From the IMG/VR virus record IMGVR_UViG_3300018411_000004: a DNA stretch of 53,756 nt; one strand, given 5' to 3'. Positions 1 to 52,500 of the stretch are shown here, piece by piece (positions within the stretch are counted from its first letter, which is position 1; every line of letters starts with the position of its first letter). The position numbers and the translations under genes are program-made. The notes beneath the pieces were generated by a model. The model was not told where the DNA came from. It saw only the letters and a list, made by a program, of their open reading frames with translations, and did not search any database. Source of the stretch: a virus.

Positions 1-123
1 GAAAAGGAAGCTTAACAAGCTCCTTTCTCTTTTTGGCACGCGAAAATAACATATCATTATATGAAGAGAAGGCTTAGCTCAGAGGTAGAGCACTGGTGAA
101 AACCCAGGTGTCGTGAGGTTCGA
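1..123. repeat. Terminal direct repeat, copy 1 (identical to 53634-53756). Either circular-assembly overlap or terminal redundancy
   Basis: Read directly: both copies run gaaaaggaagcttaacaagc ... gtgtcgtgaggttcga. Confidence 0.95.
38..66 (+). promoter_or_regulatory. Phage-specific early promoter-like box ACGCGAA-N12-TTATATGAAG
   Basis: acgcgaa at 38-44 and ttatatgaag at 57-66. Same bipartite motif and spacing as about 11 other sites. Confidence 0.6.
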
Positions 124-138
124 ATCCCACACCTTTCT
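68..138 (+). tRNA. tRNA-like element, possibly a degenerate tRNA. Anticodon loop UGAAAAC, nominal anticodon AAA
   Basis: Canonical D-arm TAGCTCAGAGGTAGAGCA and T-loop GGTTCGAATCC. The acceptor GAAGGCT/ACCTTTC has one G-U pair and one C-C mismatch. The anticodon stem has only 4 clean bp (CTGG/CCAG). G sits where U33 is expected, and the T-stem has a bulged A. No encoded CCA. Confidence 0.45.
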
Positions 139-268: not shown

Positions 269-1138
269 ATGGTTAAGAATGTATTCAGAGGTAAAGAGAG
301 TCTTATTTTGACATCTCTAGGAGCAGTGGGGGTTATTGGTACGGGGATAAGTGCTGCATTGGCAACCCCTAAAGCTTTGAAACGGTTGGAACAGTTTGAG
401 GACTTCGAGTACGAAAAACAGATGCAAGAATATGAGGACAATGGTGGCGAAATGGCAGATGGTGGGTGTGCGTATATACCAATCGACTTTGAGTATAAAA
501 TGCCGGTATGGAGAAAAGCTTTAACGATTGCTCCATATTACTTACCATCTGTAATCATTGCCTCAGGCACAATCGCATGTATTATTTCCGCGCATAATCA
601 TAATTCAAAAATGCAGAAATCCTTAACAAGTGCTTATTTGGTCTTGGATGGTATGTATAAAGAATATCAAAACTCAGCAAAAGAATTGTATGGTGATGAT
701 GCCGATCATGATATTAAAAGGCAAATTGCGATTGGTCATTACGAGGATATCGTGTTATTTGAAGGTGAGACCTTGTTCCATGACGAATACTCTGGTCGAT
801 TTTTTAAGAGTACCATGGATGATGTTAAAGAAGCGGAATATCACTTGAACCGTAATTTTGCTTTACGTGGATATTGTGAGTTAAACGAGTTCTACGAGTT
901 CTTAGGCTTGGAAACAACAGATTACGGGCACACGATTGGATGGTCGCAAGAAGCAGGATTCGATTACGGATATTACTGGATCGATTTCAAACATTCTTTG
1001 GAGGTTACAGATGACGGTATTGAGTTTTATACAATATCTTACCCTTTCATGCCAACCAATGATTTTGACTACGAGTACAGAGATTATGAAGGATACTCAC
1101 GTTTTGTACCTCAAACATTGCAAGACACGCGAAAATAA
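269..1138 (+). CDS. Membrane-anchored protein, paralog family A copy 1 (function unknown)
   Basis: 289 aa, RBS aggagg. N-terminal TM helix plus ATPKA motif, and a C-terminal LNEFYEFLGL..IGW block shared with the ORFs at 2257 and 3700. Confidence 0.8.
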   Translation: MVKNVFRGKESLILTSLGAVGVIGTGISAALATPKALKRLEQFEDFEYEKQMQEYEDNGGEMADGGCAYIPIDFEYKMPVWRKALTIAPYYLPSVIIASGTIACIISAHNHNSKMQKSLTSAYLVLDGMYKEYQNSAKELYGDDADHDIKRQIAIGHYEDIVLFEGETLFHDEYSGRFFKSTMDDVKEAEYHLNRNFALRGYCELNEFYEFLGLETTDYGHTIGWSQEAGFDYGYYWIDFKHSLEVTDDGIEFYTISYPFMPTNDFDYEYRDYEGYSRFVPQTLQDTRK

Positions 1139-1155
1139 CATCTTATTATATGAAG
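1127..1155 (+). promoter_or_regulatory. Early promoter-like box ACGCGAA-N12-TTATATGAAG
   Basis: acgcgaa at 1127 and ttatatgaag at 1146. Overlaps the last codons of the upstream CDS. Confidence 0.55.
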
Positions 1156-1365: not shown

Positions 1366-1392
1366 GGAGCGACAAGCTCTCTTTTGTTTTTA
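1366..1392 (+). terminator. Weak intrinsic terminator
   Basis: ggagc-gaca-agctc hairpin followed by tcttttgttttt. Confidence 0.4.
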
Positions 1393-1420
1393 CGCGAATT
1401 TTACACCTCATTATATGAAG
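1392..1420 (+). promoter_or_regulatory. Early promoter-like box
   Basis: acgcgaa at 1392 and ttatatgaag at 1411. Confidence 0.55.
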
Positions 1421-3699: not shown

Positions 3700-4632
3700 A
3701 TGAACTTAAAAAATACAGTAAGTAAAGTAGGATTCGCATTGCAGAAAAATGCCCCAGACATCTTAATGGGTGTTGGGGTTGTAGGATTCGTAACCAGTTC
3801 GGTTTTAACCGGTCGAGCAAGTACGAAACTAAATACGCATCTGGAGGAAGTAAAGGAAAATTTACAGAATGTTGACAAGGTTCTCGAGGGAGCTAAAAAC
3901 GGTACTGTCGACTACACAGAAGAAGATGCTAAGAAAGATCGGGCGCTTATTTATGTACAAGGAGCTTTAAAGATTGGCAAGTTATATGCCCCAGCTGTAT
4001 CAGTAGGCGTGTTCTCAATCGGTTGCGTGTTGAAATCTCATGACATCATGAAAAACCGTATGTTATCTTTAAGCGCTGCCTATGCGACATTAGCTGTAGG
4101 ATTCAAAGCATACCAAGAACGAGTGGCTGCAAGATATGGTGAGGAAGCCGAACGAGAAATTCGATATAACATCAGCACTGTTAGAACCACCGAAACGGTT
4201 GTTGGTAAAAAGGGTAAGGAAACTGAAATCGTAACTGACACAAAAGTTATTGACGCTGAAAACATGCACAGCCCATACGCAAAGATCTTTGACGAAACAA
4301 ATCAGTATTGGGAGCGAGATCCTGAATTCAACTTATCGTTCCTGACAGCTCAGCAAAGATTTGCAAATGACAAGCTTCATGCTCGTGGTCATTTATATTT
4401 GAATGAGGTATATGATATGTTAGGATTCCCTCGAACCAGAGCAGGTCAAGTAGTAGGTTGGATCTGGGATAAGACGAATGAAAGTATTGGCGATAACTAT
4501 ATTGACTTTGGAATCTTCAATGTTAATAGTAAAAAAGCTGCAGATTTTGTAAATGGGTATGAACCAGCAATTGTGTTAGATTTTAATGTCGATGGCAATA
4601 TTCTGGATCGACAATTCGAAACTATGGGTTAA
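3700..4632 (+). CDS. Membrane-anchored protein, paralog family A copy 3
   Basis: 310 aa. N-terminal ILMGVGVVGFVTSSVLTGRAS, and C-terminal LNEVYDMLGF..VVGW. Confidence 0.8.
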   Translation: MNLKNTVSKVGFALQKNAPDILMGVGVVGFVTSSVLTGRASTKLNTHLEEVKENLQNVDKVLEGAKNGTVDYTEEDAKKDRALIYVQGALKIGKLYAPAVSVGVFSIGCVLKSHDIMKNRMLSLSAAYATLAVGFKAYQERVAARYGEEAEREIRYNISTVRTTETVVGKKGKETEIVTDTKVIDAENMHSPYAKIFDETNQYWERDPEFNLSFLTAQQRFANDKLHARGHLYLNEVYDMLGFPRTRAGQVVGWIWDKTNESIGDNYIDFGIFNVNSKKAADFVNGYEPAIVLDFNVDGNILDRQFETMG

Positions 4633-6099: not shown

Positions 6100-9000
6100 G
6101 TGCTAGACTTTTTAATGATTGCAACCAGAAGCACTAAGAAAGGTGCTATTGAAGTATATCCTAAATTCTTAATAAAGAAGAGTAAGGATCTTATGATTCG
6201 AGGTGGGGATTTCTATGCTGTGTGGGACGAGGCTCAAAATCGATGGTCTTTAGATGAACACGCAGCCTTACGAATGATCGACAAGGAATTGGTAACATAC
6301 ACCGAAGAACGATGCGATAAATTTGATGGTGAAGTTCGAGTGCTACATTTATGGGATTCATCTTCAGGCATGATCGATAACTGGCATAAATATTGTCAGA
6401 AACAAATGCGAGATTCGTTCCACCCACTTGATGAAAAACTGGTATTCGCAAATGAGGAGACAACCAAAGAGGATTATGTTACACGAACTTTAACATATCC
6501 TTTAGAGTCTGGGGATATCTCGGCATACGAACGTATGATGTCAGTGTTATATTCTCCGGATGAACGTATGAAAATTGAGTGGGCGATCGGATCGATCGTT
6601 ACTGGCGAATCCGTTAATATACAGAAGTTCTTAGTATTCTACGGATCTGCCGGTACAGGTAAATCGACAGTTCTTAATTTGATTCAGAAGTTATTTGATG
6701 GATATTACACGGTCTTCGATGCTAAAGCATTGGGATCTACGAGTAACTCATTTGCTCTGGAAGCATTTAAGACGAACCCATTAGTAGCGATTCAGCACGA
6801 CGGGGATCTTTCGAGAATTGCAGATAATACTCGACTTAACAGCGTGGTTTCACATGAGTTAATGACTGTAAATGAGAAGTTCAAAGCTACATACGCTAGT
6901 AAATTCAAATGTTTCTTATTTATGGGTACGAACAAACCGGTAAAGATCACAGACGCTAAGTCGGGACTTATCCGAAGACTTATTGACGTTTCTCCCACCG
7001 GGGATAAATTACCGTCAGTAGAATATAAAGCAGTAGTACATCAACTTGATTTCGAATTGGGTGCCATCGCATATCATTGCGCTGAAGTTTACAAAAACAA
7101 CAAATCGAAATATGATGATTACATCCCAACTACAATGCTGGGCGCTTCGAATGATTTCTATAACTATATTGAAGACGCTTTTTATGTGTTTAAGGATGAA
7201 GACGGTGTAACTCTTAAAACTGCTTGGGAACGATATAAAACATATTGTACGGAGGCACATGTTCAGTATCCATTTTCACAAAGAGCGTTTAAAGAAGAAC
7301 TGAAGAATTACTTTAAAGAATATAAAGAACGTCATGTTTTAGCGGATGGAACGAGGGTGAGAAGTTATTTTGAGGGCTTTCGTTATGATAAGTTTGAAAG
7401 AGTTCAAGAGGAGGATCACGACGAATGTCCTGAGAATTTAAAGACTATTATATTTAATGGTAAAGAATCTGAATTTGACAAACAGTGCAAATCTTGTCCA
7501 GCACAGTACGCATCCGAGCAAGGATCGCCTGTCATGAAGTGGGCAAATGTGAAAACTAAGCTATCTAAAATAGACACATCCAAGTTGCATTATGTAAAAG
7601 TTCCAGAGAATCATATTGTGATCGATTTCGATTTGACGGAGAATGGCGAGAAGTCGCTGGAACTGAATTTAAAAGAGGCTAGTAAATGGCCAGAGACATA
7701 CGCTGAGGTAAGTAAAAGTGGTAAAGGTATCCATCTGCATTATATTTATTCAGGTGATGCTTCCAAACTGTCTCGAGTATATGACGAACATATAGAAATA
7801 AAAGTGTTTGTCGGTAACGCTTCGCTACGAAGGAAACTAACGAAGTTTAACGATAAACCTATAAACACTATAAGCTCTGGCCTACCCTTGAAAGGAGACA
7901 AGGTGATTAATTTCGATTCGGTAAAAAATGAAAAGGCGATACGTACGTTAATTCATAAAAATATTTATAAGGAATACCACCCTGGCACCAAACCAAGTAT
8001 CGAGTTTATACACAAGATACTCGAGGATGCTTATGAAAGTGGAGTACCTTATGATGTTCGAGATATGGAAAATGTTGTGTTTGCATTTGCAGCGAGTAGC
8101 ACCAACCATGCTGAATATTGTATGGATTTGGTTGAGACTATGAAGTTTAAATCGGAGGATATTTCCGAAAATGGCGTTAACGAGGATGTTTCGGCGCTGG
8201 TGTTTTATGATGTTGAGGTCTTTCCAAATTTATTCATTGTAAACTATAAGGCGGAAGGAGAAAATAAACCTGTTGTACGAATGATCAACCCAACGTCAAA
8301 AGATATTGAAGGATTACTTCGATACAAACTTGTAGGATTCAACTGTAGGCGTTACGATAATCATATTCTTTACGGACGTCTTATCGGGTATACGAACGAA
8401 CAACTGTATGAGTTATCAATGCGGATTATCAATAATAAACCAAATGCATATTTCGGTGAGGCTTGGAATATATCTTATACGGATGTATACGACTTCTCAT
8501 CTGAAAAGAAATCTTTGAAGAAGTTTGAAATCGAACTGGGTATTCACCATCAGGAACTTGGACTGCCTTGGGATCAACCTGTGCCTGAAGAACTTTGGGT
8601 TAAGGTCGCTGAGTATTGTGATAACGATATTATTGCGACCGAAGCAGTGTTCCATGCAAGACAATCGGACTGGTTAGCACGACAGATACTGGCAGATATT
8701 GCTGGAAAATCTGTTAACACGACTACGAACTCCCTATCGACTCGAATTATATTTGGAGATAACAAGACTCCTCAGGATGAGTTTAATTATCGTGATATGG
8801 GTAAAGTGGATGATAAATGCTCAACGATATCCATGACTGATAAAGGCGTGTTGTTTGACAACTTTGCGGACGATGAGCATTGTTTATTTGACGAGTTTAA
8901 TCGACCGGTGTTCCCTGGCTATAAATATGAAGCTGGTAAATCGCATTATCGTGGAGAAGTTGTTGGAGAAGGCGGTTACGTATATTCTGAACCGGGCATG

Positions 9001-10125
9001 TATGGAAACGTTGCATTACTTGATATTGCATCAATGCATCCGACAAGCGCAATTCAGGAAAACTTATTCGGTGATGTATATACTAAGAAGTTTAAAGAAA
9101 TTGTAGATGCTCGACTCGCGATAAAACATAAGGATCTTGATTCTGCTAGACAAATGCTGGGTGGGGCTTTAGCTAAATATCTTGACGATGAAAGTCTACT
9201 CAAGGATTTATCGACAGCGTTGAAGATCGTTATCAACTCTGTATACGGTTTAACGTCAGCAAGTTTCGAAAACCCATTCAGAGATCCAAGAAATATCGAT
9301 AATATCGTAGCCAAACGTGGAGCGTTATTTATGGTAAACCTGAAACATGCAGTTCAAGCACGAGGTTTTACCGTTGCTCATATTAAGACCGACTCGATTA
9401 AGATACCAGATGCAACTCCTGAGATTATTCAGTTTGTTACGGATTATGGTGAGATGTACGGTTACACCTTTGAACACGAGGCTACATACGATCGCTTATG
9501 TCTGGTTAATGATGCTGTTTATATCGCTCGATATTCTGGAGAAGGTGTAAAGTGGACTGCTACGGGTACTCAATTCGCGGTGCCGTATGTATTCAAGAAG
9601 TTATTTACTGGCGATGATATCGAATTTAAAGATCTCTGTGAAACAAAATCCGTAGCATCCTCCATATATTTGGATATGAACGAGTCGCTTCCCGATGTTA
9701 AAGAGTATGAAAAAGAGCGGGATAAGATATGGAAGAAACTTCTTTCCGATGAACCGATGGATAAATCTGTTGTCGACGATCTAGAACAACGATATTTGGA
9801 ACTTGAAGAACTGATCGCTCCGGGACACAATTATATATTTGTAGGAAAGATAGGTCTGTTCTGCCCAATCAAATCTGGACATGGCGGTGGTATACTTTTA
9901 AGAGAGAATAACACTGCTAAAAACGGTAAGGTTGGATATGCATCTGTAACTGGCACTAAAGGATATCGTTGGTTAGAAGCTGAAATGGTGGAGAACTTGG
10001 GTAAATATGATTCTATAGATAGATCATATTATGACAACTTGGTAAATGATGCGGTCGACAGCATTGCTACATATGGTGATATTGAATGGTTTGTATCAGA
10101 AGAAACATATTTAAAGAAAGATTAA
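6100..10125 (+). CDS. Replicase fusion: SF3 (D5/P4-like) helicase, AEP primase-like domain and family-B DNA polymerase
   Basis: 1341 aa. Helicase: Walker A GSAGTGKST (aa 182-190), Walker B VAIQHDGD, FMGTNKP. AEP: IVIDFDL and SKSGKGIHLHY (aa 506-548). PolB: ExoI FYDVEVF, ExoIII YCDNDIIAT, motif A LLDIASMHPTS, motif B KIVINSVYG, motif C HIKTDS. Confidence 0.85.
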   Translation: MLDFLMIATRSTKKGAIEVYPKFLIKKSKDLMIRGGDFYAVWDEAQNRWSLDEHAALRMIDKELVTYTEERCDKFDGEVRVLHLWDSSSGMIDNWHKYCQKQMRDSFHPLDEKLVFANEETTKEDYVTRTLTYPLESGDISAYERMMSVLYSPDERMKIEWAIGSIVTGESVNIQKFLVFYGSAGTGKSTVLNLIQKLFDGYYTVFDAKALGSTSNSFALEAFKTNPLVAIQHDGDLSRIADNTRLNSVVSHELMTVNEKFKATYASKFKCFLFMGTNKPVKITDAKSGLIRRLIDVSPTGDKLPSVEYKAVVHQLDFELGAIAYHCAEVYKNNKSKYDDYIPTTMLGASNDFYNYIEDAFYVFKDEDGVTLKTAWERYKTYCTEAHVQYPFSQRAFKEELKNYFKEYKERHVLADGTRVRSYFEGFRYDKFERVQEEDHDECPENLKTIIFNGKESEFDKQCKSCPAQYASEQGSPVMKWANVKTKLSKIDTSKLHYVKVPENHIVIDFDLTENGEKSLELNLKEASKWPETYAEVSKSGKGIHLHYIYSGDASKLSRVYDEHIEIKVFVGNASLRRKLTKFNDKPINTISSGLPLKGDKVINFDSVKNEKAIRTLIHKNIYKEYHPGTKPSIEFIHKILEDAYESGVPYDVRDMENVVFAFAASSTNHAEYCMDLVETMKFKSEDISENGVNEDVSALVFYDVEVFPNLFIVNYKAEGENKPVVRMINPTSKDIEGLLRYKLVGFNCRRYDNHILYGRLIGYTNEQLYELSMRIINNKPNAYFGEAWNISYTDVYDFSSEKKSLKKFEIELGIHHQELGLPWDQPVPEELWVKVAEYCDNDIIATEAVFHARQSDWLARQILADIAGKSVNTTTNSLSTRIIFGDNKTPQDEFNYRDMGKVDDKCSTISMTDKGVLFDNFADDEHCLFDEFNRPVFPGYKYEAGKSHYRGEVVGEGGYVYSEPGMYGNVALLDIASMHPTSAIQENLFGDVYTKKFKEIVDARLAIKHKDLDSARQMLGGALAKYLDDESLLKDLSTALKIVINSVYGLTSASFENPFRDPRNIDNIVAKRGALFMVNLKHAVQARGFTVAHIKTDSIKIPDATPEIIQFVTDYGEMYGYTFEHEATYDRLCLVNDAVYIARYSGEGVKWTATGTQFAVPYVFKKLFTGDDIEFKDLCETKSVASSIYLDMNESLPDVKEYEKERDKIWKKLLSDEPMDKSVVDDLEQRYLELEELIAPGHNYIFVGKIGLFCPIKSGHGGGILLRENNTAKNGKVGYASVTGTKGYRWLEAEMVENLGKYDSIDRSYYDNLVNDAVDSIATYGDIEWFVSEETYLKKD

Positions 10126-12450: not shown

Positions 12451-12479
12451 ACGCGAATTTAACATGGCATTATATGAAG
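12451..12479 (+). promoter_or_regulatory. Early promoter-like box
   Basis: acgcgaa at 12451 and ttatatgaag at 12470. Confidence 0.55.
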
Positions 12480-18441: not shown

Positions 18442-18466
18442 AAAAGTAGTAAAAATGGTCAATTTT

Positions 18467-18724
18467 CTGCCCACTTTTAAAAATGCAAAAGTGGGCAGAG
18501 ACAAAAATTGATGAAATTTGGAGTAAAAATTGATGAAAAAATCGAAAAAATTCGCGAAATGGCCAAAAAAAGTGGGCATTTGCCCACTTTTAAAATCAAA
18601 AGTGGCCACGAACTTTGGCTTATTAGAGCCGTTTGAAGGGCCTTGGTCAAAAACCCACTTTTCTTTTACACTAATGTGAGAGAAAAGTTAATAATATATA
18701 TAAAGAATGGCAAACAAAAGTGGG
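18467..18724. repeat. Iteron-like array: seven copies of AAAAGTGGG(CA) / its complement, including two near-perfect palindromes
   Basis: Palindrome 1 is ctgcccactttt (18467-78) with aaaagtgggcag (18487-98). Palindrome 2 is aaaagtgggca-tt-tgcccactttt (18568-91). Further copies at 18598-608 (variant), 18654-62 and 18716-24. Also a 14-bp direct repeat aaaaattgatgaaa at 18503 and 18525. Confidence 0.8.
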
Positions 18725-18840
18725 TTTTTGGCCACGAGTGATTTTTGGCAATTTTTTGTACGAATCGGTCGTCAAATTTTGCAAAGTATTTTCTTTTTGA
18801 ATTTTTGTCAGATTAATGGTGATTTTGTGGACTTTTACAT

Positions 18841-18869
18841 ACGCGAAAAATACAAAGCGTTATATGAAA
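18841..18869 (+). promoter_or_regulatory. Early promoter-like box (variant TTATATGAAA)
   Basis: acgcgaa at 18841 and ttatatgaaa at 18860. Confidence 0.5.
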
Positions 18870-19221: not shown

Positions 19222-19250
19222 ACGCGAAAAAAACACGCCCTTTTATAGAG
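19222..19250 (+). promoter_or_regulatory. Degenerate promoter-like box (ACGCGAA ... TTATAGAG)
   Basis: acgcgaaaaaaacacgcccttttatagag. The upstream half is conserved and the downstream half diverges. Confidence 0.3.
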
Positions 19251-19330
19251 GGAGGATAGAATGTGAACTTTTTTAGAAGTTACTAGTATCACTCTCTAAA
19301 CTTTTTAAACTTTATGTGGAGGATTTATCT

Positions 19331-19636
19331 ATGCGAGGTAATAAAGTGTTGGAGAAAAACTTTCAATCAAAACTCATCAAAGAGTTAAAACAAATGTTTG
19401 AAGGTTGTATTGTAACAAAATTAGATTCAGGTCATATTCAAGGAATACCCGATCTCTTGATTTTGTACAAAAATAAATGGGCGACTTTGGAATGTAAGAA
19501 ATCGAAAGGTGCTAAAAGACAACCGAACCAAAAATATTACGTTGACATCATGGATAAGATGTCCTTCTCTAGATTCATCGATCCAAACAATAAAGAGGAG
19601 GTGCTCCATGATCTTCAACAAGCATTTCAATCTTGA
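19331..19636 (+). CDS. VRR-NUC domain nuclease
   Basis: PD-(D/E)xK signature GIPDLLI...ATLECK. RBS ggagga 7 nt upstream of the ATG. Confidence 0.7.
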   Translation: MRGNKVLEKNFQSKLIKELKQMFEGCIVTKLDSGHIQGIPDLLILYKNKWATLECKKSKGAKRQPNQKYYVDIMDKMSFSRFIDPNNKEEVLHDLQQAFQS

Positions 19637-20171
19637 GGGTAGTCACGCTTTTCTTGGAGCGAGTAAATATCACTGGATAAATTATGACGAAAATAAAGTT
19701 GCAGATTCATATTTAAGATTCTTGGCAAGTCGAAAAGGAACTGAGCTTCATGACTTTGCGGCTCGATGTATTTCTTTGAAACAGAAGTTACCAAAATCCA
19801 AGAAGACTTTAAATGCTTATGTAAATGACGCTATAGGTTTTCATATGATTCCAGAACAAACCTTATATTTCTCAGACAATTGTTTCGGAACAGCTGACGC
19901 TATAACCTTTGCTAATAATACTTTGAGAATTCATGATCTGAAAACCGGAGTTATTCCAGGACATATGGAACAGCTTGAAGTTTATACCGCGTTATTCTGT
20001 TTGGAGTATGTGATCGATCCAAAAGATATTAATATCGAATTACGTATTTACCAGAATGATGATATTCTGATTCATAATCCTGATGAGGATGATATTCGTT
20101 ATGTGATTGATAAAATGGTTACGTTTGATAAAATCATTACCAAAATAAAGATTGAGGAGGGTATGGCTTAA
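19608..20171 (+). CDS. PD-(D/E)XK-family nuclease-like protein
   Basis: 187 aa, RBS gaggagg. TADAITF...IHDLKTG motif. Confidence 0.5.
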   Translation: MIFNKHFNLEGSHAFLGASKYHWINYDENKVADSYLRFLASRKGTELHDFAARCISLKQKLPKSKKTLNAYVNDAIGFHMIPEQTLYFSDNCFGTADAITFANNTLRIHDLKTGVIPGHMEQLEVYTALFCLEYVIDPKDINIELRIYQNDDILIHNPDEDDIRYVIDKMVTFDKIITKIKIEEGMA

Positions 20172-22957
20172 TGTATTATTTCGATGATGAGTTAGAACAT
20201 GTTGGAACTAAGAAACATTCAGGCCGATATCCTTGGGGGTCTGGTAAGAATCCATATCAACATAGTGGAGACTTTCTTAGTCGAGTTGAAGAACTTTCTA
20301 AGAATGGTATTTCTCAAAAAGATTTAGCTGATATTTTAGGTATGTCGACAACCGATTTAAGAATGCAGTTGAGAGTTGCCAATCATGAGCGACGCGAATT
20401 ACAAAGAGATCGAGCTAAATCTTTGAGAGCTGACGGTAAGAGTTTACAAGAGATATCTCAGATTATGGGTTTTAAAAATGACTCATCTGTAAGATCTTTA
20501 TTGAACGATAATACCGCAGCTAATAAGAATAAAGCTAAAGTAACTGCTGAGATTCTCAAGAAAGAACTCGAGAAGAAGGGTGACATGCTTGAAGTTGGTG
20601 CAGGTGTTGAAAGAGTTCTTGGTGTATCTAAATTAACTCTTAAAGAAGCGTTATTTACCCTCGAGACGGAAGGTTATAATGTTTATAAAGTTGGAATACC
20701 AGATATGTCTAAACCTGGTAGGCAGTCCAACACAGCTATATTAGCTAAGAGTCATGTTCCGTATGCCGATGCTTATGCGAAGATGGAAACCGTTCAGTCT
20801 GTTGGTGACTATCATTCCAAAGATGGTGGTGACACCTTTAGTCAAAAGAAATATCCAGCTAGTGTTGATTCTAAAAGAATTCATGTTAGATATGGAGATC
20901 AAGGTGGCGCTGCTAAAGATGGAACTATTGAGTTAAGGCGAGGTGTTAAAGATTTAGATCTTGGAACATCTAGTTATGCTCAGGTTCGTATATTAGTTGA
21001 CGGCACTCATTACCTTAAGGGTATGGCTTTATATTCCGATGATATGCCGGATGGCGTTGATATCGTATTTAACACAAATAAGAAGTCTGGAACGCCTAAG
21101 CTAGATACTTTGAAAGAAGTTAAATCTGATAAGTCGAACCCTTTTGGAGCGTATATTAAGGCTCAAGGTCAGAGTACCTATATTGACAAAGATGGTAAAG
21201 AAAAACTTTCAGCTATCAACAAGTTGAAAGAAGAAGGTGACTGGGATAAGATGTCTGAAAACTTATCTTCTCAGTTCTTATCTAAACAACCAATGCAGCT
21301 AATCAATAAACAGTTGAATCTAACATATGCCGATGCTCGAGCATATTTAGATGAGTTGAACTCTTTAACCAATCCGACTATTAAGAAAAAACTCTTATTA
21401 GATTTTGCTGGTAACTGTGAAAGTAAAGCTGTTCATCTTAAAGCGGCTGCACTACCAAGACAGAAAACTCAGGTTATATTACCCTTGACCGGTATATCTG
21501 ATAAGGAAATCTACGCGCCAAACTTTAAAGATGGTGAAAAGGTATCTCTTGTTCGATATCCTCATGGTGGTATATTTGAGATCCCGCAATTAACAGTTAA
21601 CAATAAGAATGCTCAAGGCAGAAGAGTTCTTGGAACCAACGTTAAAGACGCTGTTGGTATACACCCAAACGTTGCTGAAAGATTATCTGGAGCCGACTTC
21701 GATGGCGATCAAGTAATTGTTATTCCAGAATCATCAAAGGTTCATGTTAAATCTAAAGCTCGATTATCTGGGCTTATAGACTTTGATGGAAAGACAGCAT
21801 TCCCACCCAAGACTGAAGACACTTTATATGTGAAGAAAGGTCCTGATGATAAGACTCCACTGTACAACGGTAAGAAAATTTTATCTAAAGTCATGACTAA
21901 AGAGAACACTCAAAGAGAAATGGGTATCGTATCAAATCTTATTACTGATATGACTTTAAGGGGCGCTTCTGATGAGAAGTTAACGAGAGCTATCAAGCAT
22001 AGTATGGTCGTTATTGATGCTGAGAAACATAAATTGGATTATAAAGAATCCGAAAAGGTTAATCGTATCAAAGAACTTAAGAAAGAATATCAGTTACAGT
22101 ATGACGAAAATGGTAAGGAAAAATATGGTGCGTCTACGTTACTCTCTCGTAGAAAGCAAACCGTTGACGTTGATGAGCGTAAAGGTAGCGGCGTTATTGA
22201 TCCAGATACAGGTGTTGTGACATATAAGACTTCTGGTAGAGAATATAAAGAAATTGTTAAAGATAAAGCTACAGGTAAAAGCGTCGAGACTGGAAATATG
22301 ATCAAAGCTAAGTCTAAAGTTAAATTGGTATTAGCAGTTGATGATGTTAAGTCTTTATCTTCTGGAACTTTAGAAGAAGATGCATATGCTGACTATGCAA
22401 ATAAGATGAAAGCTTTAGCGAATGAAGCTAGGAAATTATATAAGTCTACAGGTAACTTAACATATTCTAAAGAAGCCCGTATAAAATATGACAATGAAGT
22501 TCAAGCGTTAAATGCTAGACTTAATATCGCTGCAATGAATGCTCCCAAAGAAAGACAGGCTAGGATAATTGCTAATGGAGTCCTTAAAGCTAAGAAGCAG
22601 GAATATCCTGAGCTGGTCAAAGATAAGAAAGAATCTAAGAAGATATATCAGCAGGCTATGGAGGATGCACGAGCAGCTGTCGGATTGAATAGCAAGGCAG
22701 ATAAGATAGTCTTCTCAGATAAAGAATGGGAAGCCATACAAGCTGGCGCTATCACTGATAATAAGTTAGCTCAGTTACTACGTTATGCTGATGAGGATAA
22801 GTTTAAGGAGAGAGCACTACCCAGAGCTACCACTGAACTATCCCCCGCTTCTATTAGTCGTATCAAAGCTATGCAACAAAGTGGTTACACTAATGAACAG
22901 ATAGCTTCACGATTAGGTAAGTCTGTATCGACAGTGTTTAAGTATCTTAATCAATGA
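20171..22957 (+). CDS. Single-polypeptide two-barrel RNA polymerase (YonO/RdRP-like, beta-prime-type catalytic loop) with HTH modules and an N-terminal leader motif
   Basis: 928 aa. VSLVRYPHGGIFEIP...AVGIHPNVAERLSGADFDGDQVIVIPE aligns with bacterial beta-prime NRAPTLH...[25 protein letters not shown]. DFDGD lies at nt 21695-21709. HTH-like segments near aa 45-110 and at the C-terminus (GYTNEQIASRLGKSVSTVFKYL). Confidence 0.65.
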   Translation: MYYFDDELEHVGTKKHSGRYPWGSGKNPYQHSGDFLSRVEELSKNGISQKDLADILGMSTTDLRMQLRVANHERRELQRDRAKSLRADGKSLQEISQIMGFKNDSSVRSLLNDNTAANKNKAKVTAEILKKELEKKGDMLEVGAGVERVLGVSKLTLKEALFTLETEGYNVYKVGIPDMSKPGRQSNTAILAKSHVPYADAYAKMETVQSVGDYHSKDGGDTFSQKKYPASVDSKRIHVRYGDQGGAAKDGTIELRRGVKDLDLGTSSYAQVRILVDGTHYLKGMALYSDDMPDGVDIVFNTNKKSGTPKLDTLKEVKSDKSNPFGAYIKAQGQSTYIDKDGKEKLSAINKLKEEGDWDKMSENLSSQFLSKQPMQLINKQLNLTYADARAYLDELNSLTNPTIKKKLLLDFAGNCESKAVHLKAAALPRQKTQVILPLTGISDKEIYAPNFKDGEKVSLVRYPHGGIFEIPQLTVNNKNAQGRRVLGTNVKDAVGIHPNVAERLSGADFDGDQVIVIPESSKVHVKSKARLSGLIDFDGKTAFPPKTEDTLYVKKGPDDKTPLYNGKKILSKVMTKENTQREMGIVSNLITDMTLRGASDEKLTRAIKHSMVVIDAEKHKLDYKESEKVNRIKELKKEYQLQYDENGKEKYGASTLLSRRKQTVDVDERKGSGVIDPDTGVVTYKTSGREYKEIVKDKATGKSVETGNMIKAKSKVKLVLAVDDVKSLSSGTLEEDAYADYANKMKALANEARKLYKSTGNLTYSKEARIKYDNEVQALNARLNIAAMNAPKERQARIIANGVLKAKKQEYPELVKDKKESKKIYQQAMEDARAAVGLNSKADKIVFSDKEWEAIQAGAITDNKLAQLLRYADEDKFKERALPRATTELSPASISRIKAMQQSGYTNEQIASRLGKSVSTVFKYLNQ

Positions 22958-22970
22958 AAGGAGTAAGACT

Positions 22971-23222
22971 ATGAAACGATGTGCATTAACAACTACTGAT
23001 AATCCTTATGATCCATTTGAACAATTCGATTCTTGGTATATGTTTGATCTAACTAAAGGTTATAACTCTTGCTCCTATCTTGCAAGGATTGCTCGAACTG
23101 CTGATCAACTATCTGATGAAGAGAATGCTTTGGAGATTGAGAGAGCGATCGATGAAATCATTGAGTTAGACTTTATGGATCGCTATAGAAAAGTTTGTAT
23201 TGATGAAACGAAAGCTTCATAA
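22971..23222 (+). CDS. Hypothetical protein
   Basis: 83 aa, RBS aaaggag. Confidence 0.65.
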   Translation: MKRCALTTTDNPYDPFEQFDSWYMFDLTKGYNSCSYLARIARTADQLSDEENALEIERAIDEIIELDFMDRYRKVCIDETKAS

Positions 23223-23459: not shown

Positions 23460-23627
23460 TTACTTACTGTCTGAAAAGTTCCGTGAGAGCCATTACGTAT
23501 CTCCACGACACGTCGCTTCATTAATCGCCTCCTATTGATTAATAAATTTTACCATCCATCCGTCACAGCCTCGCAACCTGTTAAGACTGAACTAAAAGTC
23601 TCACGGAACTTTTCAGACAGTAAGTAA
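23460..23627. repeat. Perfect 29-bp inverted repeat enclosing 110 nt, inside a 439-bp non-coding region
   Basis: ttacttactgtctgaaaagttccgtgaga (23460-88) and tctcacggaacttttcagacagtaagtaa (23599-627). Confidence 0.9.
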
Positions 23628-24012: not shown

Positions 24013-24415
24013 GTGTTATTCGGAACTTACACAGTTTGAAACGCTTGTAGAACGTTACCGATATTTAAAACTTGGCGGAGAACTTGGAGCGTCTACTTTT
24101 GGTTTCGATCGATATTTAAACCAGCAGTTTTATAAACTTAAAGAATGGAAAATCGCCAGAACACGAGTTATTGTAAGAGATAATGGTTGCGATCTAGGTA
24201 TTCCTGGTTTGGAAATTGTTGGGATGGTTATTGTACACCATATAAACCCAATAACGATCGACGATGTCAAAAATCGAAACCCAATCTTATTCGATCCTGA
24301 GTTTCTAATATCCACACAATTAAATACTCACAACGCTATTCATTACGGGGACGAATCGCTATTGATATCTGAAACCCCGTTAGAAAGGAGTCCGAATGAT
24401 ACAAAATTATGGTAA
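24005..24415 (+). CDS. HNH endonuclease
   Basis: RDNGCDLG...VHHINP...NTHNAIH. ATGAATAA overlap with the upstream gene. Confidence 0.8.
   Translation: MNKCYSELTQFETLVERYRYLKLGGELGASTFGFDRYLNQQFYKLKEWKIARTRVIVRDNGCDLGIPGLEIVGMVIVHHINPITIDDVKNRNPILFDPEFLISTQLNTHNAIHYGDESLLISETPLERSPNDTKLW
24381..24415 (+). repeat. 35-bp direct repeat, copy 1
   Basis: tagaaaggagtccgaatgatacaaaattatggtaa, identical to 25109-25143. Confidence 0.9.
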
Positions 24416-25127
24416 CAAATCATTGCTTCACTACGGCGTTAAGGGTATGAAATGGGGTGTTAGAAATGTAGACACTAGAATTAGTAAAAACACATCACTA
24501 TATCGGGTTAGTCCTGTTGTGGAAAATAAAACAAAAATTCACCGAACATACTTAGCTTATACTGAAAAAGATATTAATTTTTATAAAGAACACATAACAA
24601 AATTTCGAAGAGTCGATGATTCCCAACCCATGTTTTTGGTCGAATATAAGAATTTAAAAGCTATAAAACATCCATCGTCTAAAAAACAAGCCGACGAATT
24701 TTATGAGTTTTATAAAGATCATAAGGTTTTGATCGGTAAAGAAATTGCAGATGAGATGGTCACCCGATTAGGTTACACCGAACCTTCTGGCGTTAGAACT
24801 ATGTTTCACGATTTTTATTCACAACAATATTCTAATTTAAAAGATAAAGAAATTAGAACAAAAGGTTATGAGATGTTTATGCAGACTTATAGCAACACAC
24901 CAGTGGCCGATCTATTCCAAGAACAATTGAAACGAAAAGGGTATAACGCGTTATTGGATGATAACGATGTTAAGAATAACGATTTAGACGTTTTTAAACC
25001 TGAAAAACCAATAATAGTTTTCGATCCTCCAGAGAATTTAAAAATCGTTGATAATAAAAAAATATCTGAGCAAGAACTTCAAACCGCTTTATTGGAGAAT
25101 GAAAAACGTAGAAAGGAGTCCGAATGA
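24396..25127 (+). CDS. Leader-motif family protein 1 (C-terminal domain unknown)
   Basis: 243 aa. N-terminal MIQNYGNKSLLHYGVKGMKWGVR. Confidence 0.75.
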   Translation: MIQNYGNKSLLHYGVKGMKWGVRNVDTRISKNTSLYRVSPVVENKTKIHRTYLAYTEKDINFYKEHITKFRRVDDSQPMFLVEYKNLKAIKHPSSKKQADEFYEFYKDHKVLIGKEIADEMVTRLGYTEPSGVRTMFHDFYSQQYSNLKDKEIRTKGYEMFMQTYSNTPVADLFQEQLKRKGYNALLDDNDVKNNDLDVFKPEKPIIVFDPPENLKIVDNKKISEQELQTALLENEKRRKESE

Positions 25128-47924: not shown

Positions 47925-48038
47925 TTTAAAATGCAACACGACTTCGAGAGTCCTTACCTCTAGGTAAAAATTAAGCGATAAAACGGGGCTAGTAATGAGA
48001 GTGAAACTCCTGTAGCTGAAAGAAAGGTAACAACGTTA

Positions 48039-51395: not shown

Positions 51396-51611
51396 ATGGT
51401 AAATATGGCGGTAATGTTTGTTCTATCGTTTGTAAGCGTTCAAATAGGTTATTGGTTCTGCTATTTAATGAGACCAAAGACGGTTGGTAACATCCTTATA
51501 AACGATACTGAAGGTTTTGATGGTCCGTTTTTATTACTCGAATTAGATGGTAGCGTTAAGGACTTAACTACCAATGCTAAAGTTTGCGTACGAATCGTTA
51601 AACAATCCTAA
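51396..51611 (+). CDS. Small early protein with an N-terminal TM segment
   Basis: 71 aa, RBS aagtggaggtacgtaatg. Confidence 0.65.
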   Translation: MVNMAVMFVLSFVSVQIGYWFCYLMRPKTVGNILINDTEGFDGPFLLLELDGSVKDLTTNAKVCVRIVKQS

Positions 51612-51639
51612 CGCGAATAAAACATATCATTATATGAAG
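51611..51639 (+). promoter_or_regulatory. Early promoter-like box
   Basis: acgcgaa at 51611 and ttatatgaag at 51630. Confidence 0.55.
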
Positions 51640-51663
51640 TAATAAAATAGGAGGATTAAAACT

Positions 51664-52083
51664 ATGAATGACAGAATTGAAGAATTGTTGGACGAGGTTA
51701 TTGAATCTGAATTGGAGAAAATGAAAGACTCTTTGGAGAGTCCGGAAGAAAAGAAAGTAACGGTTGATTATTTGGTAAAACTGAATAACATACAAACCGA
51801 ACGTAAGGAAGTTAAACGTAAAGAAACTGAACTTGAATTAAAGCATTTAGAGTTAGAGGACAAAATAGAAGTCCAATCTGACGATAAAGCGTATAAGGAA
51901 GTTTTAGTGAAGCGTGAAATGTTACAGACGTTCGTAAAGGGTGGAATTGAAGTTTTCGGAGTAGTCGCACCAATTATGTTCTATTCGGCATGGATGAAGC
52001 GAGGTCTGAGATTTGAAGAGACAGGTACATATACGTCACAGACGTTCAAAGGTTTGTTTGGTAAATTTAAACCAACTAAGTAA
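51664..52083 (+). CDS. Early protein (coiled-coil plus a C-terminal hydrophobic segment)
   Basis: 139 aa, RBS taggagg. Confidence 0.7.
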   Translation: MNDRIEELLDEVIESELEKMKDSLESPEEKKVTVDYLVKLNNIQTERKEVKRKETELELKHLELEDKIEVQSDDKAYKEVLVKREMLQTFVKGGIEVFGVVAPIMFYSAWMKRGLRFEETGTYTSQTFKGLFGKFKPTK

Positions 52084-52096
52084 TACTGATAGGATT

Positions 52097-52124
52097 GAGA
52101 GTTAAAACACTCTCTTTTCTTTTT
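52097..52124 (+). terminator. Intrinsic terminator (cassette type)
   Basis: gagagt-taaaac-actctc hairpin followed by ttttcttttt. Confidence 0.65.
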
Positions 52125-52136
52125 GGAGATTTACAT

Positions 52137-52165
52137 ACGCGAAAAAAACATTGACTTATATGAAG
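52137..52165 (+). promoter_or_regulatory. Early promoter-like box
   Basis: acgcgaa at 52137 and ttatatgaag at 52156. Confidence 0.55.
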
Positions 52166-52195
52166 AATAAAAATATAATACGTGGAGGTATTAAA

Positions 52196-52435
52196 ATGGA
52201 AAGTATTTTGAGAACAAAGATTGAAGAATTGGAAGAGTTATTAACGGTTGAGATTATCAACACCGCTGGAGGAATATCCGACGACGAGATAGAAGCGCTG
52301 ATTAATTTAAAACAAACAATTCGACGATCTTTGAAAATAACTGCTGGACGTGAAGAACTTCGAGATGTTAAAAAGATATTCGAACTGAATAAGAGACTTA
52401 AAGAATTGGATAAGCCGTTAAACTTTAAAAAGTAA
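52196..52435 (+). CDS. Small early protein
   Basis: 79 aa. Start after acgtggaggtattaaa. Confidence 0.65.
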   Translation: MESILRTKIEELEELLTVEIINTAGGISDDEIEALINLKQTIRRSLKITAGREELRDVKKIFELNKRLKELDKPLNFKK

Positions 52436-52445
52436 TGGTTGATTT

Positions 52446-52471
52446 GAGGGCGTAAGCTCTCTTTTCTTTTT
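52446..52471 (+). terminator. Intrinsic terminator (cassette type)
   Basis: gagggc-gtaa-gctctc hairpin followed by ttttcttttt. Confidence 0.55.
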
Positions 52472-52500
52472 GCGCGAATTTAACATACCCTTATATGAAG
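52472..52500 (+). promoter_or_regulatory. Early promoter-like box (GCGCGAA variant)
   Basis: gcgcgaa at 52472 and ttatatgaag at 52491. Confidence 0.5.

Follow-up and report, generated by a model that had tools for sequence, protein, structure and literature searches.

A predicted single-chain two-barrel RNA polymerase of phages and a co-inherited candidate promoter element

The window analyzed here is the whole 53,756-nt stretch of IMG/VR virus record IMGVR_UViG_3300018411_000004, and its ends repeat each other. An ORF with an ATG start at 20171 and a stop at 22957 encodes a protein of 928 aa (Table 1). As an earlier note on this DNA had read it, the protein contains the strings VSLVRYPHGGIFEIPQLTV (residues 457–475) and AVGIHPNVAERLSGADFDGDQVIVIPE (residues 494–520). 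The gene is located at the end of the replication module and immediately 5' of the late genes, which form a co-directional block of 28 kb (about 23.6–51 kb). The endonuclease and exonuclease genes next to it are also kept beside the polymerase in phages of Firmicutes and of Actinobacteria (FP_oengus, Circum, Bilo, Secretariat, ReqiPoco6, and Damascus). The order of endonuclease, exonuclease, polymerase, and small ORF, beside a genome end, is shown to be conserved.

Table 1. Positions of the polymerase gene, its predicted parts, its neighbors, and the element copies in the window.
Feature	Coordinates	Strand	Basis
Single-chain two-barrel RNA polymerase gene (predicted)	20171..22957	+	PHROG 4291 family; homologue of Lactococcus phage 1706 orf75
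N-terminal conserved peptide LEHVGTKKHSGRYPWGSG, residues 8–25, DUF7211-like variant	20192..20245	+	Invariant columns, homologues
N-terminal helical region, two HTH-like units, residues 35–136	20273..20578	+	Weak Pfam/PHROG HTH matches, model helices
Beta-rich region, residues 237–354, candidate first (beta-like) double-psi barrel	20879..21232	+	Model secondary structure, QDE-1 alignments
Second (beta-prime-like) double-psi barrel, residues 432–519, R462-x-P464 and catalytic loop	21464..21727	+	Invariant columns, model, RpoC matches
DFDGD metal-binding triad, D509/D511/D513	21695..21709	+	Invariant in 72 homologues
C-terminal HTH (sigma region 4/HTH_38-like), residues 889–927	22835..22951	+	Pfam
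Upstream operon partners: endonuclease 19316–19636, Cas4-like exonuclease 19509–20171	19316..20171	+	phrog_93, phrog_3953
Small ORF, 83 aa, phrog_4303	22971..23222	+	3' of polymerase in all relatives examined
Head/packaging module with four DUF7211 proteins: 24396–25127, 25517–25933, 25935–26828, 28776–29261	24396..29261	+	Pfam DUF7211
Element, "operon" variant ACGCGAAAAAAACACGCCCTTTTATAGAG	19222..19250	+	Directly upstream of the endonuclease-exonuclease-polymerase operon
Element copy	18841..18869	+	Element scan
Element copy, replication module	12451..12479	+	Element scan
Element copy, early region	1392..1420	+	Element scan
Element copy, early region	1127..1155	+	Element scan
Element copy, ends 2 nt before Rfam-called tRNA (68–138)	38..66	+	Element scan; Rfam
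Early region, six element copies: 51611, 52137, 52472, 52772, 53133, 53396	51611..53424	+	Element scan

Over its full length the protein belongs to PHROG 4291, which is labeled "RNA-dependent RNA polymerase": residues 5–927 are aligned to positions 9–906 of the 909-position profile (E = 0, 1121.7 bits). Homologues are found in 250 GenBank phage records, and the family comprises at least 1,231 clusters at 50% identity (E <= 1e-30). Lactococcus phage 1706 orf75 is 38% identical (BLASTP E = 7e-180) and also contains the DFDGD triad. A DNA-level search against GenBank phages gave no near match for the window phage, an uncultured relative of Firmicute type. Most of the homologues are named "HTH DNA-binding domain protein" in GenBank, and others "RNA-dependent RNA polymerase". 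The polymerase reading is thus already known from PHROG 4291, from GenBank annotations, and from two publications. Koert et al. 2021 (10.1101/842583) described the same protein features, with an HHpred probability of 95.7% and an alignment to Pfam RdRP, and Ruprich-Robert and Thuriaux 2010 (PMC2919709) listed the phage 1706 family and grouped it among "YonO-like" proteins. Published experiments or assays on PHROG 4291 were not found in the literature. Against Pfam RdRP (PF05183) the protein scores 17.4 bits, below the gathering threshold of 23.8 (E = 0.0019, residues 500–649 only). By this profile score it is related to the eukaryotic cellular RNA-dependent RNA polymerases but falls outside the family as Pfam delimits it.

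The catalytic core is strongly conserved. Among 72 homologues that are 44–77% identical, the GADFDGD loop (residues 507–513) is invariant, including D509, D511, and D513, as are R462 and P464. The aspartates correspond to the metal-binding triad that the earlier note had pointed out. The R462-Y-P464 motif is invariant and sits on a strand of the second barrel in the AlphaFold (AF2) model; judging from their position, R462 and P464 may be the equivalents of Rpb1 R446 and P448. In the candidate first barrel, D250, R273, K283-G284, N301, N303, and K304 are invariant. The conserved basic residues and aspartate of the Rpb2 barrel are K979, K987, and D837 (PMC2919709).

The full-length model has a pLDDT of 80.2 and a pTM of 0.68. 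When it was compared with the PDB by Foldseek, Neurospora QDE-1 (E = 1e-7), P74-26 gp62 (1.4e-6), and RDR2 (4.4e-6) were matched, all with a probability of 1.00. Beta-prime and Rpb1 chains were matched as well and rank after these three; crAss gp66, which the earlier note had named for this comparison, is not among the matches listed from the PDB and BFVD. With a core-only model, QDE-1 and RDR2 were recovered again, together with local matches to bacterial beta-prime (~140 columns at ~3 A) and to the double-psi barrel of the p97 N domain. The alignments to QDE-1 cover 490–930 columns across the two models. In the viral library BFVD, P23-45 gp64 (A7XX94, 4.9e-6) and other phage "RdRP" entries were found. 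The TM-scores of the models to solved structures are low (0.2–0.34).

The primary sequence similarity to the bacterial enzyme is much more restricted. The segment had been described as collinear with beta-prime. In a Smith-Waterman comparison with E. coli beta-prime, this stands for 24 residues around DFDGD (RpoC 445–468; 9 of 1000 shuffles), and nothing else in the sequence beats chance. The family HMM gave no further similarity to RpoB or RpoC, and for the beta-like barrel nothing was found in RpoB by Smith-Waterman or HMM. Together, the structural matches and the invariant triad agree with the earlier reading. The models support a single-chain polymerase of the two-double-psi-barrel class, for which catalysis is predicted. 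Its branch of this class probably also holds the QDE-1/RDR enzymes, YonO, P23-45 gp64, and the crAss-like virion RNAP.

Three HTH-like units had been proposed in the protein. The one at the C-terminus, resembling sigma region 4, is significant (Pfam HTH_38 E = 3.3e-8; Sigma70_r4_2 E = 1.3e-6). The signals for the two N-terminal units are weak: an Xre-like HTH in Pfam at E = 0.004, the lambda cI HTH with the family profile at E about 0.02, and helix pairs at residues 35–56 and 92–111 of the AF2 model. These two are consistent with HTH folds, but no strong match was obtained.

The N-terminal peptide is carried by 239 of 240 homologues, with the family consensus MNPxAEDILMHYGVKRRSGRYPWGSG. H10, G12, S17–P21, and G23–G25 are invariant among the 72 homologues, and residues 1–33 are predicted to be disordered (pLDDT < 50). 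A leader-like motif shared with the packaging-module proteins had been suggested. The four downstream proteins starting at 24396, 25517, 25935, and 28776, whose genes flank TerL (27018–28763), pass the Pfam DUF7211 cut-off of 27 with 30–37 bits, but the N-terminus of the polymerase does not match DUF7211 (PF23847) at E <= 0.1. The link comes instead from the family consensus and from P0109, a natural fusion that joins a polymerase-type N-terminal peptide to a canonical DUF7211. On these two grounds, the N-terminus of the polymerase is a variant of DUF7211. In FP_oengus and 1706, the polymerase motif is present, and canonical N-terminal DUF7211 proteins are few or none.

A repeated element of ~30 nt, CGCG-N6-ACA-N5-TWTAWT followed by purines, is seen in 12 unique copies, all on the + strand. 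The scan gave 13 matches on this strand against 0.02 expected, because the window ends repeat and the copy at 38..66 is therefore doubled at 53671–53699. The copies lie 5' of early and replication genes and 5' of the polymerase operon, and none is present between 19.3 and 51.6 kb. Each of the six copies in the early region 51611..53424 has an intrinsic terminator on its 5' side and an RBS with a small gene on its 3' side; eight intrinsic terminators were noted there against 1.1 expected. As the copy at 38..66 ends just before the tRNA, the start site is constrained to the TTATAT-GAAG part.

The element is also found in relatives. In 80 related viral loci there are 97 matches, all on the gene strand and most ~940 nt upstream of the polymerase. 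A positional orthologue of the "operon" copy is present at this distance in nearly all of these loci, and in FP_oengus and Circum as well. A syntenic contig, with proteins of no more than 25–47% identity, has five copies. With a model built from Firmicute-phage sites only, five intergenic copies were detected in Arthrobacter phage Circum (E = 7.5e-6, 2.2e-4, 0.019, 0.019, and 0.17). The element was not found in the parts of phage 1706 that were searched (1–30 kb and 44–55.6 kb). These comparisons show, at the sequence level, that element and polymerase are inherited together across bacterial phyla. The element, its 12 copies, and its recurrence in relatives, as a candidate promoter, are new here, and so are the deposited label of the 1706 homologue (below) and the relation of the N-terminal peptide to DUF7211.

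A link to the virion is suggested by annotation. 1706 orf75 is labeled "structural protein" by the depositor in the original record EU081845.1, and the ReqiPoco6 record repeats the label. 1706 orf7, which contains two DUF7211 motifs, is labeled in the same way. The N-terminal peptide of the polymerase, invariant although disordered, is a further hint. The polymerase is thus possibly packaged in the virion. Because the element was not found in the searched parts of 1706, the virion and the promoter draw their evidence from separate branches of the family.

The best explanation, which we consider probable, is that the protein is a two-barrel phage transcriptase with its own promoter, possibly delivered by the virion; its activity is a prediction. 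The enzyme would be DNA-dependent. Its HTH domains would read the upstream CGCG...ACA part of the element, and the polymerase would melt the A/T hexamer and start at the purines that follow. It can be speculated further that copies of the polymerase are packaged and injected, so that early genes might not need the host polymerase for their transcription, as with N4, crAss-like phages, and P23-45. The disordered DUF7211-like peptide might be the signal for incorporation into the virion, and the "operon-variant" promoter might supply new enzyme for packaging. Points against this explanation are the low TM-scores, the lack of RpoB similarity in the candidate beta-like barrel, the N-terminus that stays below the DUF7211 cut-off, and the scarcity or lack of canonical DUF7211 proteins in FP_oengus and 1706. 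The strongest form of the proposal is a self-sufficient minimal transcription machine, in which HTH domains replace sigma and read a ~30-nt promoter, and which a siphovirus carries by means of a DUF7211-like general capsid-cargo tag and injects for early transcription. This form is tentative and, taken as a whole, somewhat doubtful.

The alternative that survives best is a YonO-like non-virion late transcriptase. The host RNA polymerase, perhaps with a regulator bound at CGCG...ACA, would use the element for early and middle genes, including that of the phage polymerase, and the latter would transcribe the late operon from a single promoter. YonO itself transcribes the late genes of SPbeta as one operon (PMC5467207). 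The gene studied here lies directly 5' of a late block that contains no element copies and is itself 3' of a copy, and the early units end in intrinsic terminators, a signal that bacterial RNA polymerase recognizes. The site of the gene, closing the replication module just before the late genes, suits such a late transcriptase as well as it suits the favored explanation. In Circum the hexamer of the element is a perfect TATAAT, and the element may therefore be a host sigma-A promoter combined with an operator for a phage regulator. In the window, however, the hexamers (TTATAT and TTTTAT) combine −11 A with −7 T in no register, and no −35 match is present. Sigma70-like sites are not enriched (10 found in the early region against 10.3 expected). 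CGCG and ACA are not at the positions of sigma70 elements, yet they are conserved between Firmicute and Actinobacteria phages. Judged by its bases, the element is not sigma70-like. The virion label of the 1706 homologue also argues against a late-only role, and so do two loci, L037 and L040, in which an element copy is present downstream of the polymerase as well, 5' of late genes. We regard this alternative as rather doubtful.

The protein could instead be a QDE-1-like RNA-dependent or mixed-template polymerase that works on nucleic-acid intermediates instead of serving as the phage transcriptase. Its products might be antisense or double-stranded RNA, or it might act as a primer of replication or of recombination, together with the adjacent endonuclease and exonuclease. 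QDE-1 and RDR2 are the best structural matches, and these closest solved relatives are RNA-dependent, which is a point against the transcriptase. The weak Pfam RdRP match and the linkage to VRR-Nuc and Cas4-like nucleases, invariant across phyla, point in the same direction, and QDE-1 accepts both single-stranded DNA and RNA templates (PMC9508822). Yet the characterized phage relatives YonO, P23-45 gp64/gp96, and crAss gp66 are DNA-dependent transcriptases (PMC5467207, PMC10770324). Besides, the three HTH domains point to the reading of sites in double-stranded DNA, the window already has a primase-polymerase gene at 6100–10125, and the repeated promoter-like element would be left unexplained. 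This role is quite unlikely. A DNA-binding regulator or structural protein with a vestigial polymerase core, as the common name "HTH DNA-binding domain protein" and the single deposit as "structural protein" might suggest, is highly improbable, since DFDGD, R-x-P, and dozens of core residues are invariant down to 44% identity in a family of more than 1,200 clusters, the signature of a predicted active enzyme.

These results bear on the question of how a minimal two-barrel polymerase locates its promoters when it has no sigma or TFB-like factor. The transcriptase favored here belongs to a family that is uniform in architecture, with HTH domains fused to the catalytic core, and is distributed in hundreds of cultured actinophages and in dairy and gut phages. 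With an enzyme and a concrete candidate promoter, the question can be addressed directly with a single purified protein on short DNA templates, and relatives have hosts in culture (Arthrobacter, Gordonia, Streptomyces, Lactococcus, and Faecalibacterium). If the virion link is true, a role as a capsid-cargo tag could be assigned to DUF7211. Many "HTH DNA-binding protein" annotations would need correction, as would the "RNA-dependent RNA polymerase" labels that have been misread as RNA-virus-like (PMC13587820).

The closest known relatives are 1706 orf75 and the other PHROG 4291 proteins: AUV56548.1 of Faecalibacterium phage FP_oengus and the "RdRP/HTH" proteins of Arthrobacter, Gordonia, Streptomyces, Rhodococcus, and Microbacterium phages. 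They are homologous to the window protein over the full length (37–51% identity) and share the HYG...SGRYPWGSG peptide, the GADFDGD loop, and the C-terminal HTH. Their neighbors are also shared: nucleases 5', a small ORF 3', and a genome end close by. Unlike the 1706 family, the window phage has four extra DUF7211 proteins, and the element is clear in the window and Circum, in contrast to the searched parts of 1706.

YonO of the Bacillus prophage SPbeta is likewise a single-chain two-barrel phage RNA polymerase of ~100 kDa. The "YonO-like" assignment of the 1706 family is taken from PMC2919709, and YonO is likened here by description. In the available text of PMC5467207, YonO is not a virion enzyme and begins late-gene transcription at a single start site, its promoter determinants are given as unknown, and neither HTH domains nor the N-terminal peptide is reported. 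QDE-1 and plant RDR2 share the two-barrel core and the DxDGD loop, but they serve in eukaryotic RNA silencing, copy RNA or single-stranded DNA, do not have HTH domains, and are only 11–14% identical.

The N4 virion RNA polymerase and the two-barrel gp66 of crAss-like phi14:2 follow the same proposed logic, a particle-carried polymerase and phage-specific early promoters. The fold of N4 vRNAP is, however, T7-like and unrelated to the two-barrel fold. N4 and phi14:2 have podovirus-like particles, whereas the window phage has a long tail, and its virion location, unlike theirs, is suggested by the depositor's label on the 1706 homologue. The non-virion P23-45 gp64 and P74-26 gp62, and the virion gp96, which is fused to the tape measure protein, are minimal single-chain two-barrel polymerases with promoter motifs of their own (PMC10770324). 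Among phage proteins in the PDB, P74-26 gp62 gives the best match, at about 12% sequence identity. These Thermus phage enzymes differ in that they either have 600 aa and lack HTH domains or belong to a tape measure protein of 5,002 aa, and in using other promoter motifs (PMC10770324).

The 928-aa ORF on the plus strand contains VSLVRYPHGGIFEIPQLTV (residues 457-475) and AVGIHPNVAERLSGADFDGDQVIVIPE (residues 494-520), the two strings from which the earlier note had read a phage single-chain two-barrel RNA polymerase. The phrog_4291 "RNA-dependent RNA polymerase" profile matches the protein at full length (E = 0, residues 5-927). In an alignment of 72 homologues, 44-77% identical to the polymerase, the proposed metal-binding aspartate triad (D509, D511, and D513) is invariant. 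R462, P464, and many core residues, including D250, R273, K283-G284, N301, N303, and K304, are also invariant. The C-terminal HTH (residues 889-927) has significant matches to Pfam HTH_38 (E = 3.3e-8) and Sigma70_r4_2 (E = 1.3e-6), in agreement with its proposed likeness to sigma region 4. For the pair of HTH units proposed near the N-terminus, the signals are weaker than that of the C-terminal HTH: an Xre-like HTH (E = 0.004), PHROG regulators and transposases on residues 40-117, lambda cI with the family profile (E about 0.02), and helix pairs in the AlphaFold2 model.

The AlphaFold2 model of the full-length polymerase, built on the same alignment, has a mean pLDDT of 80.2 and a pTM of 0.68, with disorder confined to residues 1-33. 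Foldseek against the PDB matches it to QDE-1 (E = 1.0e-7, 930 columns), Thermus phage P74-26 gp62 (E = 1.4e-6, 544 columns), and maize and Arabidopsis RDR2 (E = 4e-6 to 3e-4, about 540-590 columns), all with probability 1.00. The beta-prime/Rpb1-type largest subunits (bacterial, archaeal, eukaryotic, and viral) follow at E about 5e-3 or weaker with lower probability. In a viral predicted-structure library, P23-45 gp64 (4.9e-6) and several uncultured-phage entries named "RNA-dependent RNA polymerase" are matched. A core-only model (residues 225-735, pLDDT 70) is poorer than the full-length model. It again matches QDE-1 (1.2e-6) and RDR2, along with the double-psi barrel of the p97 N domain, and its matches to bacterial beta-prime are local (~140 columns, ~3 A rmsd, 18-20% identity). 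Since global TM-scores to solved structures are low (0.2-0.34), homology is claimed for the catalytic core and not for the overall shape.

The proposed collinearity with the beta-prime barrel holds by fold but not by sequence, except around the catalytic loop. Smith-Waterman comparison with E. coli beta-prime aligns only AVGIHPNVAERLSGADFDGDQVIV with RpoC 445-468, at a score that 9 in 1000 shuffled queries also attain. In E. coli RpoB and RpoC, the family HMM matches the DFDGD loop alone, with a negative score, and finds no similarity outside it. Sequence searches of the PDB, whether started from the protein or from the family profile, return HTH proteins alone and no polymerases. An alignment made by eye, of YLK283GMALYSDDMPDGVDIVFNTN to the beta signature KGVISKINPIEDMP...VDIVLNPL, was unsupported by Smith-Waterman and shuffles and was dropped as evidence. 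The first, beta-like barrel may correspond to residues 237-354 of the model. As modelled, the polymerase combines a two-barrel fold with fused HTH domains and keeps its catalytic loop intact; the observation in the earlier note is confirmed, and its interpretation is supported.

A repeat search of the window revealed a ~30-nt promoter-like element, ACGCGAA-N4-ACA-N5-TTATATGAAG. With up to three mismatches it has 13 matches, all on the plus strand, against 0.02 in shuffles; because the window ends repeat, these represent 12 unique copies. A sequence-only model scores the copies at 28-37 bits and everything else in the window at 7 bits or less. The copies precede early and replication genes and directly precede the nuclease-polymerase operon, and the stretch from 19.3 to 51.6 kb has none. 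Within the early region, every copy sits after an intrinsic terminator and before an RBS. Eight such terminators are found there against 1.1 expected, and sigma70-like sites are not enriched (10 against 10.3 expected). A tRNA matched by Rfam (44 bits) and not reported by ARAGORN starts 2 nt after the copy at 38-66, and transcription must thus begin inside TTATAT-GAAG or directly behind it. This tRNA is followed by another stretch, which contains a T-arm-like GGAGTTCGACTCTCC, and both immediately follow the first element copy.

If the hexamer is set at -12 to -7, CGCG lies around -30 to -27 and ACA around -20 to -18, and these two are not sigma70 promoter elements. The window hexamers TTATAT and TTTTAT lack the -11 A/-7 T pair in any register. 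The reading of ACA as the end of a -35 box, with a -10 box downstream of GAAG, is rejected on account of the tRNA 2 nt after GAAG in one copy and of the differing registers of the two strong sigma70-like matches. A hairpin like that of N4 promoters pairs in 75% of cells against 71% in shuffles (a level reached by 1 of 500 shuffles), which, the sequences being related, supports it weakly.

An exact-motif scan of IMG/VR gives only three single matches, so degenerate and model searches are needed for this element. In 80 IMG/VR loci with polymerases 48-76% identical, the model gives 97 matches at E <= 0.01, without exception on the gene strand, and a copy ~940 nt ahead of the polymerase start recurs in almost all of the loci. 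This copy is a distinct variant (...ACA-N5-TTTTATGGAGAG...), which Faecalibacterium phage FP_oengus has too. A 57-kb contig, syntenic with the early region of the window at 25-47% protein identity, contains five copies, and two relatives have a further copy downstream of the polymerase, ahead of the late genes. The early region of Arthrobacter phage Circum contains five intergenic copies on one strand with identical spacing, e.g., TCGCGTAAATTACATGCCCTATAATAGAAG, detected at E = 7.5e-6, 2.2e-4, 0.019, 0.019, and 0.17 by a model made from Firmicute-phage sites only. An earlier cross-phylum model search, made on right-end fragments from six phages, gave no significant match (E = 0.12-2.7); the significant sites of Circum are in its early region. 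In phage 1706, a search of 1-30 kb and 44-55.6 kb found no copy.

Downstream of the copy heading the operon, a purine-rich tract comes first and next, at a fixed distance of 9-11 nt, a conserved ATGTG (window 19251-19268), likewise placed in the related loci L009-L089, FP_oengus, and Circum. In the window and Circum it reads ATG-TGA, a start codon and then a stop, and in other relatives ATGTG begins a short ORF. A leader or regulatory role is conceivable.

As judged by sequence comparison, the element is phage-specific, not sigma70-like, placed on one strand ahead of early genes and the polymerase operon, and inherited along with the polymerase across phyla. The most likely reading is that the polymerase is the phage DNA-dependent transcriptase for the units headed by the element. 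"Funnel" and "switch 2" elements are said to mark enzymes that depend on DNA (PMC2919709). Its HTH domains would read CGCG...ACA, the A/T hexamer would be melted, and RNA synthesis would begin at the following purines. The main alternative is a YonO-like division of labor, in which the host polymerase uses the element and the phage enzyme transcribes the late operon. The position of the polymerase gene fits this, as do the perfect TATAAT hexamers of Circum; beside the non-sigma70 layout of the window copies, we consider it rather unlikely. It is improbable that the polymerase instead acts, as QDE-1 does, on RNA or single-stranded templates in concert with the neighboring nucleases, the closeness of the fold to QDE-1 notwithstanding.

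The polymerase might also be carried in the particle. Four proteins of the head/packaging module open with L-x-H-Y-G-x-K-G-M-K/R-W-G-x-R. They are otherwise dissimilar, and all match Pfam DUF7211 (PF23847), a 25-aa motif (HYGxKGMKWGxR), above threshold. The polymerase starts with ...ELEHVGTKKHSGRYPWGSG, below the Pfam threshold. The family consensus start is MNPxAEDILMHYGVKRRSGRYPWGSG, and the N-terminal motif is present in 239 of 240 homologues. The metagenomic homologue P0109 (1128 aa) is a fusion of a canonical DUF7211 start (MNPVAEDILMHYGIKGMKWGIRR), a ~230-aa domain, and a complete polymerase keeping its own variant. The consensus, its near-universal presence, and this fusion link the polymerase peptide to DUF7211, so that the leader-like motif noticed earlier as common to polymerase and packaging-module proteins stands, if sub-threshold by Pfam. 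H10, G12, S17-P21, and G23-G25 are invariant among the 72 homologues, and few parts of the polymerase are as conserved as this peptide. It is predicted to be disordered in the model. High conservation with predicted disorder is the pattern of a docking peptide.

In the original deposit of Lactococcus phage 1706 (GenBank EU081845.1), "structural protein" is applied selectively, to 11 of 76 ORFs. Both motif-bearing proteins carry this label, which is the statement of the depositor and would coincide by chance at ~2%: orf7, just upstream of TerL, with two DUF7211 motifs (41.8 bits), and orf75, 38% identical to the polymerase (E = 7e-180). The ReqiPoco6 record repeats "1706_gp75 structural protein", and RefSeq later renamed orf75 "RNA-dependent RNA polymerase". 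A literature search found no paper on DUF7211. The motif may be a capsid cargo or assembly tag. More speculatively, the polymerase could be packaged via its N-terminal peptide and then injected, which would account for the transcription of early genes with non-host promoters, and the promoter variant ahead of the operon could supply new polymerase for the next particles.

All genes of the window are on the plus strand. Its ends are identical over 123 bp, and the genome is thus circular or terminally redundant, with 53,633 bp.

Features of the window in order of position, with strand where reported
Feature	Position	Strand	Remark
Terminal repeat	1-123 = 53634-53756		identical
Small early genes	from 51.6 kb, across the junction, to ~6 kb	+
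Element copies	38, 1127, 1392, 12451, 18841, 19222, 51611, 52137, 52472, 52772, 53133, 53396	+
tRNA	68-138		Rfam
T-arm-like stretch	~150-235
phrog_2152 paralogues	269-1138, 2257-3015, 3700-4632	+
Primase-polymerase, then helicase	6100-10125 (primase-polymerase)	+
Nucleotide-metabolism and small genes	between helicase and endonuclease	+
Short-repeat cluster	~18450-18750
Endonuclease	19316	+
Cas4-like exonuclease	19509	+
Polymerase	20171-22957	+
Conserved 83-aa ORF	22971	+	directly after polymerase
440-nt gap	after 83-aa ORF
26-bp perfect inverted repeat	23463-23626		in 440-nt gap
HNH, DUF7211 proteins, TerL	27018 (TerL)	+	after 440-nt gap
Proteins with DUF7211 start	24396-25127, 25517-25933, 25935-26828, 28776-29261	+
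Portal, protease-capsid, tail, tape measure, tail fibre genes, then lysis genes	downstream of TerL	+
~141-nt repeat units	40949-43016, 50282-50561		in 40737-45158 and 50217-51197 proteins
42-nt tandem repeats	46063-46188		three, tail fibre gene
RT-18 sRNA match	47955-48026		between tail fibre gene and next gene

Endonuclease, exonuclease, polymerase, and small ORF form a block common to FP_oengus, Circum, Bilo, Secretariat, ReqiPoco6, and Damascus, where it lies at the right genome end, adjoining cos. The inverted repeat (cttactgtctgaaaagttccgtgaga ... tctcacggaacttttcagacagtaag, arms ~105 nt apart) may mark the site of packaging or the end of the genome, since the cos ends of the actinophage relatives are at the equivalent position. 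Just upstream of the operon, short TGGCCA, GGCCAAA, GTGGGC, and GCCCAC repeats are dense, with a similar cluster at an equal relative position in FP_oengus, Circum, and Microbacterium phage Damascus. The cluster may serve as a replication origin or as an array of protein-binding sites, and mechanical ORFs overlapping it may not be genes. The ~141-nt units (families D1, D4, and D5), shared by the large tail protein and a second protein, look like a common repeat domain, which might bind the cell wall or a receptor. The RT-18 match scores 42.1 bits against a threshold of 41.3. The three paralogous early proteins, of unassigned function, are multiplied also in the related contig L006.

By tblastn, 250 GenBank phage records have a polymerase homologue, full-length in 249. 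Their hosts are Arthrobacter, Gordonia, Streptomyces, Lactococcus, Curtobacterium, Microbacterium, Rhodococcus, and Faecalibacterium, and their labels are "RNA-dependent RNA polymerase", "putative RNA polymerase", "HTH DNA-binding domain protein", or hypothetical. The best match is FP_oengus (51% identity); GenBank phages include no near DNA match to the window. In metagenomes, two word-indexed searches each yield at least 8000 scored candidates. An exhaustive profile search gives at least 1,231 clusters at 50% identity (E <= 1e-30), and nearly all of the best 150 are about 870-1070 aa. The Pfam RdRP model scores the polymerase at 17.4 bits, below its gathering threshold of 23.8. Recent genome papers repeat the RdRP label, and one interprets it as RNA-virus-like. 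The literature search found no experimental work on the family, and the supplements of PMC10770324 do not name it. A concrete candidate promoter and a hint of virion location, both testable in cultured relatives, add to the value of this large family, whose activity is so far putative.

Both the class of enzyme and this very family are on record in literature and databases. Koert et al. (bioRxiv 10.1101/842583) presented the protein as a signature gene for a supercluster of actinophages and Firmicute phages, with an HHpred match to Pfam RdRP (95.7%), HTH domains at both ends, and a DxDGD loop. Ruprich-Robert and Thuriaux (2010; PMC2919709) placed the phage 1706 protein among five "YonO-like" families.
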